Assembly (NCBI GenBank): GCA_951406725.2
Contig: OX597826.1
Coordinates: 40,858,001 to 40,922,000, forward strand
Reading direction: 5' to 3'
Length of the DNA: 64,000 nt
DNA from: Octopus vulgaris
Lineage: Eukaryota
Under the pieces are notes generated by a model that was not told where the DNA came from, did not search any database, and saw only the letters and a program-made list of their open reading frames with translations. Shown here in pieces: positions 12,158 to 53,384 of the stretch (positions are counted from its first letter, which is position 1; each line of letters starts with the position of its first letter). Made by a program: the position numbers and the translations under genes.

Positions 12158-12165
<8 letters not shown>

Positions 12166-12545
12166 TTAGTGAATTGAAGAAATGGAGTTGAACGAAGATT
12201 GAACAGAAATCGTTCTGTTTTTGTTTTTTCCAACGGATTTCCTATTTCTTCCTGAAGAGAAAGACACAATATGGTCTCCTTATTCAATCGGAATTTGGTA
12301 AATTGTGGCTTTCGAAACACGTGTAGAATGCAATAAAACGATTTCTGTTCAATCTTCGTTCAACTCCATTTCTTCAATTCACTAATAATATTAAAATTCA
12401 ATTATCCGCACCAACGCATGGTTGCAACACCATATGGTTGTACCTCCAACCGTGCTGTCTTCTGCTGTGATTTTTGCTACCAAGGTATCGGTTAAACTTT
12501 TGATTAATCTGCAACAAGATTATTCATCTTTCTATTTCACAAAAT
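12158..12545 (+). mobile_element. Fold-back, hammerhead-bearing Penelope-like element
   Basis: 57-bp perfect inverted arms 12158-12214 / 12337-12393 around the hammerhead, a 3' extension, and (TA)n flanks. Confidence 0.6.
12246..12330 (+). ncRNA. Type I hammerhead ribozyme (Penelope/retrozyme type)
   Basis: TTC-CTGAAGA(12252)-stem II GAAAG.CACAAT/ATTGTG.CTTTC-GAAAC(12314)-ACGT-GTA-GAA. Palindromic stem III loop; predicted cleavage after 12325; AATAAA just downstream. Confidence 0.75.
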
Positions 12546-12588
12546 ATATATATATATATATATATATAGCTCAGATATTTATTATTGC

Positions 12589-12625
<37 letters not shown>

Positions 12626-15284: not shown

Positions 15285-15839
15285 ATTATAGTTTTTGAGT
15301 GCAAAGAAGGAAGATTTTGAGACTTGTTACCCCTATAAAAGTTGCTAAGAGGTTATCCCTATCCTGAGCCTAGGTTTGAATTTCGAATCGAGAATAGTAG
15401 ATCTTTAATTAGGTCAAAGTATAGTTTAAAAAAAAAAACACTAGCCTTAGGTGAATCATGAATTAGTATGCTTCAAATATAGCGTTACCAATTCAGATAT
15501 TACTATACCAATTCAGATATTACTATAACTAAATATAGGTTACCAATTCAGATATTACTATAACTAATTACTAATTCAAATATAATTTAATATACAAGAT
15601 ATGTGAAACATTATAGTTTTTGAGTGCAAAGAAGGAAGATTTTTGAGACTTGTTACCCCTATAAAAGTTGCTAAGAGGTTATCCCTATCCTGAGCCTAGG
15701 TTTGAATTTCGAATCGAGAATAGTAGATCTTTAATTAGGTCAAAGTATAGTTTTTAAAAAAAAACACTAGCCTTAGGTGAATCATGAGTTAGTATGCTTC
15801 AAATATTGCGTACAATAACTGGTTAGATATGTGAAACAT
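15285..15839. repeat. Local tandem duplication of ~200 bp with an internal 20-bp repeat
   Basis: 15285-15480 is nearly identical to 15610-15806. taccaattcagatattacta occurs three times in between. Confidence 0.85.
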
Positions 15840-18848: not shown

Positions 18849-19094
18849 ATACACACACACACACACATATACATATATATATATATACATATATATATAA
18901 CTATAAAATTAGAGAATGGAGAAACATACTTAAATCAGTAAAACATCAACTATCCGATGATACTCAATCCATACTTTAATACATCATTACATATGAGTAA
19001 AGGCAATATATAAAATGAAATGAGATATACAGTAATAGTAAAAAGATAAAGAGATATAAGTAAAAAATTTCAAATATAATATGCAAATAAATCA

Positions 19095-19210
19095 AAAACT
19101 GACAGCTGTTTCGGCAGTGAGGGCAGTCATACCTCATTTAACCTATAAGCCATAAAGGCAGGTATAAATGAGGCATTAACAAGGATGCCCCACGGCCTCT
19201 TCAGAGAATT
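19095..19210 (-). ncRNA. Type I hammerhead ribozyme, inverted twin of the 19443 copy
   Basis: Reverse complement of 19437-19552, lying in the left arm of the long inverted repeat. Confidence 0.75.
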
Positions 19211-19436
19211 AAATTAAATTTGTTAATATTAATATTAATAAGTACCGTAATATATACACTGTTATATATTTTGTTTTATTTTGTTCTGTTTACCTTCCTT
19301 TTTTGTACAAATGTGTATTATATTATATAAGTGTAGCATTATGATGTATAAGTTTTTATATTTTACATTTTTATATTTTTATATTTATATGTATATGATT
19401 ATATAATATTTTTCACTATTATAACAAATTTAATTT

Positions 19437-19552
19437 AATTCTCTGAAGAGGCCGTGGGGCATCCTTGTTAATGCCTCATTTATACCTGCCTTTATGGCTT
19501 ATAGGTTAAATGAGGTATGACTGCCCTCACTGCCGAAACAGCTGTCAGTTTT
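19437..19552 (+). ncRNA. Type I hammerhead ribozyme with long stem II
   Basis: CT-CTGAAGA(19443)-GGC.GTG.GGGCA..ATGCCTCATTTA/TAAATGAGGTAT..TGCCC.CAC.GCC-GAAAC(19535)-AGCT-GTC-AG. Predicted cleavage after C19546. Confidence 0.8.
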
Positions 19553-20166
19553 TGATTTATTTGCATATTATATTTGAAATTTTTTACTTATATCTCTTTA
19601 TCTTTTTACTATTACTGTATATCTCATTTCATTTTATATATTGCCTTTACTCATATGTAATGATGTATTAAAGTATGGATTGAGTATCATCGGATAGTTG
19701 ATGTTTTACTGATTTAAGTATGTTTCTCCATTCTCTAATTTTGTAGTATTAATTTACGGTAATATTATTACCTTTACCCATATAATACAATAGATGAACT
19801 GATTGTTTGACAATTTTTAACATCTATGTATTAATTTTGTTGGGTACCTATCTAGCAGTATATTGGATATATATTATCCCATGGTGGGTTGAATTTTCAA
19901 CCCCTATCTCACTTTATTACATATATATATATATACATATAGTATATAAGAAAAAGGGACAGGCAAAACAGGTTGCCTGACCGCATACCGAAAAAATAGA
20001 AATAGCAGTCAAGAATGCTTATTTCTATCAAAGTTGGACTCCGGGCATGACAGACCCTGTAATTCACATATGCAAAACAGAAGGAATAGATAACGAATAC
20101 GAAGTCTGGCGGATACATATATGTACATATATATATACATATATATATACATATATATATATATAC

Positions 20167-22454: not shown

Positions 22455-22957
22455 CTGTATGTATATATACATACATTTATATACATACACATATATGTAT
22501 GTGTGTATATCATATAATGTACACTGTACATAGTTATGAGTTACTTATAGTTCAAACATTGGAGAGTTTCCAAGTAATCTTCAGAGCCTGATGATTACTT
22601 GGAAACACAAGGCATAATATTAAAACCGCTCTACAAAATATCTTCAATGTATGGAAATATTTGTAGCGCATAACTATATACTGTATGCATAAAACAATAT
22701 TTATCTCTCACCGGTTGGATTACTTTTTTTTTAAGCTTACCTTAACGGAAAAGTAAATTATATATTGGAAAATGACAAAGAGTATCTGAAAAAAACCTCT
22801 CCCAAAACACCCTCTTCCGAAAACACAAACAGCAAATTCAACTCTAGACATTTTTTCAATTAATTTACACACACGCGCATGCACACAGACATGCACGCAT
22901 ATACACACACACACATGCACACACACCTACGATTAGTTCTTATCCAAATCCTGAGAG

Positions 22958-26162: not shown

Positions 26163-26175
26163 AAACTCAACTTAC

Positions 26176-26703
26176 CGTCTCTTTCCGTTTCTTGTCGTCT
26201 CTGCTCTCCAGTTTCTTGCTAAGTTCTGCTTTAAATCCAGCAGTGTCCACGAAAGAGGGATCATCCTTTGATAAGACGTCCATTAGATAGGCGATATAAC
26301 TCGTGGCTAGACGAAGAGTTTTTATTTTCGATAATTTTGTGTCTGACGGAACATTTGGTATACAACCACGAAGTTGAGCAAAAGCCATGTTTATGCTCTG
26401 AGTCCGTCGTCTTTCTTTTTTGTTAGCCGTGACTCTTCTTTTAATGACACGTAGCGGCCCTGAGTGTGTTTGTATGTGTTCGTAGGTGTAGGTTTGATAA
26501 TCGGAAGACAAGGAACCAGTTGTAGTCAGGTAGGAAGAATCGTTGCCTATTTGTGCGCTGGCTACAGTCGTGTCGTTTCCGTTAAGCATCCAATTTGGGA
26601 AGTAATGGTGTGGTGTCGGTTCCGGTGGATATTGGTAAAAATCGTGTACCATGGGCCCTGGATGATGGTAACCTTGGTTATATCCTGTCACGCTGAGACT
26701 CAT
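26176..26703 (-). CDS. Hand: Hand-family bHLH transcription factor (HAND2-like), main coding exon
   Basis: Translation [14 protein letters not shown]...[11 protein letters not shown]...[61 protein letters not shown]...GFKAEL matches the Hand bHLH, the N-terminal MSL..G / YF..W motifs and the FKAE motif. The exon is 528 nt (176 codons) and ends at ACG|GTAAGT (phase 0 donor, GT at 26175-26174). Confidence 0.95.
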
Positions 26704-26959
26704 TTCTCCGATGAAATCGGTGGGGTGGGGGCTTGAAACTGGATTCTGTTTTTTTTCCGCTAAGCCAAATATTTCCTCTGTCGGATCCACAATGAAATTG
26801 AAATAAAAAAGCAATGTTAATTAAAATATTAAAACATTTATTTTGCAAGGGTGGAGGATGAATTATTCATTATCATAATCATCATCCTTATTATCAACTT
26901 TTATTATTATTATTATTGGGCCTATGGATAATTTTCAGAAATCCCCGGCACTGACAATG

Positions 26960-27600
26960 CTACTAAGAAGTATTGCCGATTCGGGATAAACTCTACAGAC
27001 ATAGAAGTGTCGTCAGCCAGGCCTGCCCGAGATGCGCGCAGAGCGACAAAACTGTTCTGCACGCCCTCGTCCAGTGCCCGAGCATTGCTGACTTGTGGGT
27101 TTATGTCGAATATCTGCTGTCGCGTGTAAGACTAATCCGGCCGCCTTCATTTCGCCCCGCCGTCTTCCTTTGGCCGAGGAGGGCAAGCAGTGCTTCTCTG
27201 TCTGGTGGCCTTAGCGATAGAGGTTGTGCAGTGGACCAAGTTGAAAGGGCTGAAGATAGACACTTTCCTATTTGGCCAAACCCTCATCAACATTTTCAAA
27301 TTCCACTTGAAAAAGAAACAGAGAAGAAAGGGAAGTACTGCCACTCAGCAATTTTGTCATAAGGTGAGTGAATGTAGTGCGTATGGCTCGAGTGAACTAC
27401 ATCAAGGTTGGACGAAGAGGAGATGACGGAGAGGAGAGGGTAATCGTGGTTTTTGTGGGTTCCCACGAGCAACCTTTGGAAGTATCCCTTTTGGGGGGAT
27501 TTTACTTGTTTTAACTTTTATTGTTTTCCTTATTTACACGTTCCAATCCCACTCGTTTTGTATTGTCCTCTATTGTCCACAATCTTTTATATGAACCCTC
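26960..27600 (+). pseudogene. L1/Tx1-like LINE 3' fragment (zf-RVT region)
   Basis: LPIRDKLYRH...CPRCAQSDKTVLHALVQCPSIADLW CCHC motif; frameshifted. Confidence 0.75.
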
Positions 27601-38562: not shown

Positions 38563-38636
<74 letters not shown>

Positions 38637-38760
38637 GACGGTTTTCTTACAGTTCCCGTCTACCAAATCCATTCACAAGGCTTTGGTCGGCCCGAAGCTA
38701 CTGGAGAAGACACTTGCCCACTTACAGTGGGATTCAACCTCGAACAATGTGGTTGGAAAC
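38317..38760 (-). mobile_element. SINE family B (other partial copies near 1170-1410, 9525-9650, 10310-10480, 17520-17840, 21800-21990, 35165-35360, 47620-47780, 48470-48605, 56695-56795)
   Basis: Shared motifs ccaaatcca.tcacaaggctttggtcggcc and tagtcgaacaaatcgacccc. Confidence 0.75.
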
Positions 38761-38919
38761 AAGCAATAATAATAAATCTCTGAGCAAGGTATAAGCAGTA
38801 GCTGCACGACATCGTGAAGTATATTTGCCATCTAAATGTGGCTAACCCCAGGAAGACCTCCTCCACATTGTTTGTGCCCTCACTTTTTCGAGATCAGTAA
38901 GTTTTCTTCACTGGAAAAC

Positions 38920-38956
<37 letters not shown>

Positions 38957-39250
38957 TTGAGGACCACTACCCATCGCCAACTGGTGGTTGTCACACGCTG
39001 ATGACGGGTCAATACTCAGAAACCCGGGTCCGTGTGTATCACGTCAGGCTGGAGATGGGAACGATGACTTCCCCTTGCAAATACTTATAGAGCACAGATA
39101 GTGTGTCAATAGCCAGCTGGAGGAGTTGCCTTGTTGGGGCTACAAGTTACCGTATCATCAACTCTCGAGGGTTAGCCACATTTAGGTGACAAATATATAT
39201 CACGATGTCGTACGGTTACTGTTTATACCTCGCTCAGAGATTTAATATTG

Positions 39251-39253
<3 letters not shown>
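38761..39253 (+). mobile_element. Inverted-repeat element enclosing a hammerhead
   Basis: Diverged ~88-bp inverted arms 38761-38849 / 39168-39253, an internal (TA)n, and a hammerhead at 38992. Confidence 0.55.
38992..39036 (+). ncRNA. Minimal type I hammerhead ribozyme
   Basis: CACACG-CTGATGA-C-GGGT-CAAT-ACTC-A-GAAAC-CCGG-GTC-CGTGTG: perfect 6-bp stem I, 4-bp stem II, palindromic CCGG loop; predicted cleavage after C39030. Confidence 0.8.
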
Positions 39254-39307
<54 letters not shown>

Positions 39308-52095: not shown

Positions 52096-53384
52096 CTGAG
52101 TTATCCCAAAAACAATGAGGTTTTTTTAAACTTCTTTTATTTTACAAAATTAAGATAAACAATGTTTGTTTTTGTTTTTTTTATCTAAAATATATTCTCC
52201 TTCATTTTCTACAACGCTCTTCCATCTCTCTGGTAGACTTCCAAGGCTCCTCTTCCAAGATTCACTTGTCTGTGACAAAAAATACTCTCCCCCCACCCCG
52301 TACTGTTCTGACCTCGTCTACAGAATTCATATTTTTTCCGTTCAAAATATTTTTAAGGCTGCGGAATAATCAGATGGGGTAATGTCCGGCGAATATGGTG
52401 GGTAGAGTATCGTTTCCTATTCAAAGTATTCCAGCCTTTGGAATGTCATCCTCGCTGTATGTGGCCGAGCATTATCCTGATGGAAGAACACCTTTCGTCT
52501 TGAAACCAAAGATGGTCGTTTTTCTTCTTCGCTCACTTAGGCCGCTCAAGTTGCTCGCAGTAGATCTCCTTTGTTATCGTTTGGCTTGGGTCTAAAAGTT
52601 CAAAGTGGACTAAACCTTTCATATCTCACCAAACAAAAACAACACCCTACGTGCGGGAAGACGTTCTTTAGCCTTGGATGCTGGTGTCTCTCTTTCCCCT
52701 ACTCACTATCTTTGTTGCTAGACATTTTTATAGAGAACCCATTTCTCGTCACCAGTCACTATTCGGTCCAAAAAAAGGTTCATTCGTGAGAGGTGACAGC
52801 AAAAAAGAGCACACATTCACTCTCTGCGCGCGATTATACTCGGGGAGTTTGTAAAGAACCCATTGACCTAATTTGCTGACTTTTCTGATGACACGTAGGT
52901 GTCAATGAATGACTGAATGACCAAATCCAAGCTTCTCTGCTAGTTCCTCAAAAGTTACGATGGGATTTTGTTCCACCAGAGTTTGCAGGACGTCCTCGTC
53001 TAGCTCCACAGATCTCGCAGGACGAGGATCATCTTCTAGGTTGTAGTTTCCGGCTTGGAATTTCTGAAACCACTGTTGACACTGGCTTAGGCTTATTGTC
53101 CGATCCCCAAATACTGCATTAATATTCGTTGCACTTTCCAATGCGTTGTTGCTTTTATTGAACTCATAAAGCAAAATATGCCGAATGTGCTCCTTTGTCC
53201 CTTCCATTATAGCTTTGAAACAATAACTTAAAATTAAACTGCAGTTTTCAAAACTTGCTCTAAGAATAAGTGCAAGGTAACATTACTACCTTCTTTTATA
53301 GCAAGTTGATGCAGGTACTTTATCCTGTCCCCATCCGACTTTTAGTTCATGCAATTGAAAAAACTGCATTATTTATGGAATTGC

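Follow-up and report, generated by a model that had tools for sequence, protein, structure and literature searches.

A type I hammerhead ribozyme motif in a putative Penelope-like terminal repeat of Octopus vulgaris

Does the 45-nt segment at 38992-39036 of this stretch of Octopus vulgaris DNA (the window, 64,000 nt in all) form part of a self-cleaving ribozyme, and what kind of element carries it? An earlier note on the window had described the segment as a compact minimal hammerhead, the cleanest of its kind there, lying between inverted arms and predicted to be active as a dimer. We find that the segment is a real hammerhead ribozyme motif of an already known kind, with self-cleavage predicted from its sequence. 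The reading that we hold to be probable is that it represents the type I hammerhead of a pLTR-like 3' terminal repeat, in a high-copy family of retroelements mobilised by Penelope-like elements (PLEs), and that it is cut after C17 in dimers, as predicted.

Core and helices of the motif

The forward-strand letters are identical to those read before (CACACG-CTGATGA-CGGGT-CAAT-ACTCA-GAAAC-CCGG-GTC-CGTGTG). They match every position of the conserved hammerhead core (C3 U4 G5 A6 N7 G8 A9 / G12 A13 A14 A15 / U16 H17), as the consensus is given in the available part of PMC3088659. Three helices of 6, 4 and 2 pairs, with stem I open-ended, give a type I layout (Table 1). Stem I had been called perfect and stem III a 2-bp helix closed by CCGG with a palindromic loop; both descriptions are borne out by the pairing. 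Alignment of the core places the predicted cut after C39030, as had been proposed.

The bare core pattern was not significant, with two matches in the window against a mean of 0.53 (8 of 100 shuffles reached two). For a descriptor requiring a stem I of at least 6 bp and a stem II of at least 4 bp, the 38992-39036 site was the sole window match; of 600 shuffles made from the 45.8 kb of non-simple sequence, one contained a match of the same quality. The hammerhead call is upheld by this result and by the complete core. The second core-pattern match, at 22588, was rejected, as its stems were absent under the descriptors; it belongs to a near-perfect 18-bp inverted repeat (22568-22605) in which both strands resemble two hammerhead core boxes without stems, probably by chance. 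Rfam returned no hammerhead match at the gathering score and none among the 27 and 4 matches at E <= 10. Scanning metagenomes for the variant pattern gave seven loci, none of which had stems I and II (flanks judged by eye).

Two of the original descriptions did not survive. The motif is not minimal: stem I runs past an internal loop into five more pairs, for a total of about 67 nt with canonical proportions. Helix II has 4 bp and helix I 6 + 5 bp, whereas the minimal build has a long helix II and a short, unextended helix I. Pair probabilities for the extension were about 0.6 in a 67-nt fold and about 0.3 in a 301-nt fold, and a 45-nt construct would omit it. Bearing on the loop 1-loop 2 tertiary contact of non-LTR retrozymes, the internal loop has a single U on its 3' side and an A closes loop II. 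Nor is the word cleanest supported, given that a C·A opposition adjoins the core and that the copy is predicted to misfold as a monomer. Stem II, given before as CGGGT/ACTCA, does exist, but it opens with this opposition and retains only four pairs, one of them G·U. The base pair 10.1-11.1 beside the core is absent, whether the site is read as C39005·A39018 or as a G-C pair with one extra base on each side. With that pair absent and no ORF linked, we classed the motif as a variant; a U·U exception is known (PMC3088659 and PMC7229834, in the parts available).

Table 1. Coordinates of the hammerhead, its helices and the surrounding repeat copies
Feature	Position	Strand	Details
Type I hammerhead core	38998..39030	+	C3-A9 = 38998-39004; G12-A15.1 = 39019-22; U16.1 = 39029; C17 = 39030
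Stem Ia	38992..39036	+	6 Watson-Crick pairs, 38992-97 / 39031-36
Extended stem I	38981..39047	+	Internal loop 38989-91 / 39037; stem Ib of 5 pairs, 38984-88 / 39038-42
Extended stem I, outer end	38981-83 / 39045-47	+	3 further possible pairs
Stem II	39005..39018	+	4 pairs, 39006-09 / 39014-17, one G·U; 4-nt loop; C39005·A39018 opposition beside core
Perfect 8-nt palindrome	39022..39029	+	Monomer: 2-bp stem III + tetraloop; dimer: 8-bp helix III
5'-truncated copy (~300 nt) of the 3' end of a high-copy repeat	38954..39253	+	(TA)n at 38921-53 and from 39254
Second, inverted, shorter copy	38757..38917	-	Matches 39069-39257 with 32-nt deletion; no hammerhead
Probable 24-nt 3'-end stub of same repeat	12569..12592	+	Inside (TA)n; 22/24 identical, E 9.5e-5
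Unrelated multi-copy interspersed repeat	38636..38764		4-nt overlap with inverted copy; six other window matches

The palindrome has a predicted self-duplex energy of -14.9 kcal/mol. The predicted monomer structure of the window copy is a misfold in which 39005-09 and 39022-26 are paired (probability 0.73-1.0) and the pair probability of stems II and III is close to 0. Relative to the minimum-energy structure, the active fold costs 10.5 kcal/mol. A strand-swapped active dimer with an 8-bp helix III reached -41.1 kcal/mol, compared to -41.4 kcal/mol for two misfolded monomers. An inactive two-strand fold, at -45.4 kcal/mol, was 4.3 kcal/mol more stable than the active dimer, which counts against dimer cleavage in our preferred reading; all of these energies disregard the tertiary energy of the core. 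The prediction of dimer activity nevertheless holds, backed by the folding energies and by a palindrome-preserving change among copies of the repeat.

Variation among copies of the family

The segment 38954-39252 was compared with 4 of 24 matching public runs at 80% likeness. Contigs came from three of these (X1, X2 and X15) and reads from an RNA run with another species label (X23); 2845, 1958 and 318 contigs and 327 RNA reads aligned to the repeat. Summed depth at the hammerhead in X1 was near 200,000, against about 26-90 for single contigs. Depth does not translate into copy number, but values of this size point to a repeat family with very many copies.

Each of the 40 variants listed, of 115, reached at least 46% in some run, so the remaining 75 would be minority letters. 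Among the listed variants, none of the 23 positions of the core and stem Ia varied (stem Ia: 0 of 12), compared to 34 of 254 positions outside the motif (one-sided Fisher p = 0.043, for rows that are selected and non-independent, reads pre-filtered at 80% likeness and 75 of the 115 rows left out). Five listed variable positions fell inside the 45 nt, one of them in loop II, and all were compatible with the fold. For example, T39016C (67-97% of depth) converts the G·U of stem II to G-C and yields a perfect stem II. C39024T (51, 77 and 67% in X1, X2 and X15) and G39027A (43, 61 and 52%) together keep the palindrome. For their co-occurrence only lower bounds can be given, 37% of depth for X2 and 19% for X15, with none for X1. 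C39025T, at 46% in X23, leaves G·U pairs in the dimer helix.

The extension of stem I varied in both directions. G38987A (73-84% of depth in three runs) replaces G·U with A-U and perfects stem Ib. G38986C and C39045A, each near 50% in X23, would disrupt pairing in the extension, a point against our preferred reading. At 39005 and 39018 no variant and no deletion appeared among the listed rows, so the irregularity beside the core appears to be family-wide and not a decay of the window copy.

As judged from the aligned copies, the lack of common change in the core and stem I, the G·U to G-C change in stem II and the paired change in stem III show apparent selection on the fold. The covariation of the palindrome supports dimer-type cleavage as the predicted mode. 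The changes at 39024 and 39027 both fall on third codon positions of the frame that begins with the ATG at 39001, but a coding reason for them was discounted: other common changes alter residues, and the frame closes by 39090.

Elsewhere in the repeat, most family copies have a 6-bp hairpin with a 3-nt loop at 39120-39134 that is lost in the window copy (variant rows and loose ends). Summed depth at 39094-39123 and 39214-39243 exceeded that at the hammerhead; these segments are possibly more conserved cis-elements or common to other families.

Insertion pattern and affiliation of the repeat

The copy at 38954 begins 38 nt ahead of stem Ia. Both this copy and the 24-nt stub are embedded in (TA)n, which borders the inverted copy on one side. 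An insertion bias toward (TA)n is a weak sign, since 18,164 of the 64,000 bases of this AT-rich, animal-type window are simple repeat. The copy has no ORF, no partner hammerhead of the same family was found within 64 kb, and Pfam detected neither RT nor GIY-YIG domains in 145 of the 150 window frames of at least 55 aa.

Joints in other copies bear on how the repeat was inserted (15 listed of 17). Five of the 15 switch strand, with a different breakpoint each time. Another three are go-back joints that form partial tandems, each seen in 1-2 contigs; these include 39252>38965 and 39252>38988. Depth at the go-back joints was 18-74, compared to 18,890-129,659 at the 3' end, although units longer than the compared stretch would not appear. 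Loose ends behind the 3' end were heterogeneous (agreement 0.45-0.55), and those upstream had no common reading frame as judged by eye. The 327 reads of X23 ran in both directions, 75% of them continued into unlike sequence, and their ends did not pile up at the cut site.

A link to Penelope-like elements, also suggested by the earlier note, was sustained by this pattern. The available part of PMC8557442 gives inverted 5'-truncated partners, partial tandems and microsatellite targets as marks of PLEs; 5' truncation, an inverted truncated partner and partial-tandem joints are all found here. The lack of a read-end pile-up says little, as X23 carries another species label and a PLE hammerhead that cleaves in vitro is likewise without RNA ends at the cut (PMC11167929, in the part available).

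Metazoan PLE hammerheads offer the closest structural comparison. Their pLTR consensus has an extra base after A9, a G10.1-C11.1 pair and a palindrome (Cervera and De la Pena 2014, PMC4209133, as far as its available text goes). The window motif likewise is of type I, with an unpaired base after A9 (here C39005), G10.1-C11.1 in that register and a palindromic 15.1-16.1 segment; both occur mostly as solo truncated copies, with dimers predicted. In contrast to that consensus, it has one added A before G12, and unlike those hammerheads it has no ORF linked to it. AGAAA occurs in 1 of 56 entries in the available text of Fig. S3 of PMC4209133, in a row that is not assignable and perhaps as a text artefact. 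The S. mansoni minimal forms in the same source have the reverse build of the window motif, whose helix II is short, at 4 bp, and whose helix I is long and carries an extension.

Similar features recur in two other sources, each available in part. In Anolis Poseidon PAc (Frangieh et al. 2024, PMC11167929) the hammerhead lies in the terminal repeat of a PLE, as is probable for the window motif, and both have AT-rich targets and lack RNA-seq ends at the cut. The PAc ORF starts at stem II, whereas here the CG after A9 leaves no start codon there. The hammerheads of Lunse, Weinberg and Breaker (via the review PMC6765202) have a short palindromic stem III, a PLE association and dimer cleavage, all of which apply to the window motif, the PLE association as a probable one and dimer cleavage as a prediction. 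Data of Lunse et al. (RNA Biol 14:1499) may already contain the family or the C·A variant. Our literature search, with most subscription papers outside its reach, found no description of either.

Two other hammerhead families in the window have the same inverted layout as the copy at 38992-39036, a further point in favour of our preferred reading. The second family occurs twice, at 19443-19546 (+) and 19204-19101 (-), within 326-bp inverted arms (18900-19225 / 19422-19747). These arms differ at 1 of 323 compared bases, as for a very young PLE-type inversion. In its members, stem I has 2 bp, stem III is palindromic over 8 nt and the stem II region takes up 85 nt (z = -4.9 for the segment 19430-19560). 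The third family, at 12252-12325 (+), lies between 62-bp arms (12158-12219 / 12332-12393) that are 97% complementary. Its stem II region covers 55 nt and its palindrome 8 nt; position 17 is A, and stem I has 3 bp.

The window also holds features of other kinds. The interspersed repeat adjoining the inverted copy we take to be SINE-like, of the octopus type. An open frame at 26167-26814 (-), which starts about 12 kb from the hammerhead, has a bHLH domain (PF00010, E 1.6e-19) and is presumably HAND-like. A mariner-type HTH_48 remnant (E 9e-20) lies at 52905-53282 (-), a weak zf-RVT remnant, under its cut-off, at 26967-27359 (+), and a 202-bp direct repeat with 97.5% identity at 15285-15485 / 15610-15811.

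Predicted activity and competing explanations

In the PLE terminal repeat that we favour, the fold, its conservation in the family and the pattern of insertion are observed, while dimer formation, cleavage and a link to an ORF are the predicted parts. Two copies in one transcript, as in a partial tandem, would pair through their 8-nt palindromes to form a stable helix III. Each core would then be completed by the 3' strand of the other copy and cut after C17. The cut would release or trim the element RNA, perhaps helped by the element's protein, and a lone copy would fold away from the active shape. The window copy is probably a dead-end insertion, silent unless it pairs in trans, as it has no ORF and no partner hammerhead of its family within 64 kb. 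Weighing against this reading are the lack of a linked RT or GIY-YIG gene in the frames searched, the lack of an Rfam hammerhead match even at E <= 10, the absence of a read-end pile-up in the one RNA run of another species label, and helix sizes (6 and 4 bp with an extended stem I) that are those of canonical retrozyme hammerheads rather than of minimal PLE forms.

We tentatively propose, with more doubt than confidence, that the family is an active variant with C·A beside the core (or one extra A ahead of G12) and with a lock on the monomer built into its sequence. Bases 39005-09, made up of the extra C and the 5' side of stem II, are complementary to 39022-26 at the start of the palindrome, such that a lone copy would be in an off state and would be released only on pairing of two palindromes. 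By pairing logic, the common family variants keep the lock helix through G·U pairs. If this lock is true, thousands of copies missed by Rfam and strict descriptors would be a natural dimer-sensing switch, and PLE-type hammerheads would be undercounted.

The affiliation of the element has one serious competitor, which we regard as unlikely. As no RT or endonuclease gene is linked in the window, an autonomous pLTR and a non-autonomous, retrozyme-like derivative both fit. In a non-LTR retrozyme, tandem units of 300-450 nt would be cleaved to monomers, which would become circular and then be reinserted by PLE proteins, and the window would hold a dispersed monomer. The same enzymes would serve a PLE terminal repeat, but a retrozyme would lack an ORF of its own and would pass through a circular RNA. 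Arrays of 150-450-bp units in tandem mark non-LTR retrozymes; in the window the unit is solo, and the compared contigs hold the few go-back joints, units longer than the compared stretch being out of view. Canonical helix sizes and the extended stem I suit a retrozyme, as do the two go-back joints from 39252, and retrozymes are reported to derive from PLE pLTRs (bioRxiv 10.64898/2026.07.22.740005, in the part available). Axolotl HHR_Amex2 (Cervera and de la Pena 2020, available part of PMC7229834) has a 2-bp stem III with a tetraloop, U·U at the base of helix II and far better cleavage as a dimer. The window motif resembles this type I hammerhead in stem III, in a mismatch at the helix II base, in a helix I of canonical length and in dimer dependence, predicted here. 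However, its mismatch is C·A and not U·U, and its copies look dispersed and truncated rather than arrayed. The low contig number and depth of the go-back joints, the heterogeneous loose ends past the 3' end, as for dispersed copies, and the RNA reads continuing into unlike sequence all argue against a retrozyme. Retrozyme monomers are highly self-paired, but the 301-nt window copy is not (z = +0.66, with folds just as good in 76 of 100 shuffles).

It is improbable that the family is instead a relic, its cleavage disabled by C·A beside the core (or by the extra A ahead of G12) and its apparent conservation inherited from a few master copies. Mispairing beside the core usually marks cryptic mutants in repeats, and matches of this sort are rejected unless activity is measured (PMC3088659, in the part available). 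In addition, 8 of 9 tested Xenopus dimers did not cleave (available part of bioRxiv 10.64898/2026.07.22.740005), PLE insertion in vitro was not blocked by hammerhead mutants (PMC11167929, likewise), and read ends do not pile up at the cut. Against a relic stand the two-base change that preserves the palindrome and the unchanged core, in subfamilies otherwise divergent at about 13% of positions. An active natural ribozyme also tolerates U·U at this site (PMC3088659 and PMC7229834, parts available).

The inverted arms raise a further alternative, a MITE-like DNA transposon whose terminal inverted repeats enclose a captured hammerhead, which we consider very improbable. Arms of 81 bp with 87.7% identity (38768-38848 / 39169-39249; BLAST) do lie at both unit ends, and the length of 88 bp given in the earlier note was fair (about 89 bp with a 3-nt gap). 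These arms are a second truncated repeat copy, however, and not flanks of the ribozyme. Their similarity goes on inward with the 32-nt deletion, and that of the inner part was matched by 4 of 2000 shuffles. Inversion breakpoints vary between copies, a solo 3' stub occurs at 12569-92, and a (TA)n tract lies between the two copies. Of the 10 positions at which the two arms differ, the left arm has the letter more common in the family at 7.

A chance look-alike has a negligible probability: the bare core pattern is common and Rfam finds no match, but the stems recur in so few shuffles, and variation among copies so preserves the structure, that covariation refutes chance in practice.

For the PLE terminal repeat as we read it, the finding is largely expected, since hammerheads in Penelope-type repeats are well described. 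What is new is a small structural twist missed by standard searches. The natural covariation of the palindrome backs the dimer model from sequence evidence alone. The irregularity beside the core, apparently family-wide, is rejected by Rfam and by strict descriptors, which implies an undercount of ribozymes of this sort. Three hammerhead families in one 64-kb window, two with a very long stem II, would provide a test set for the role of hammerheads in PLEs.
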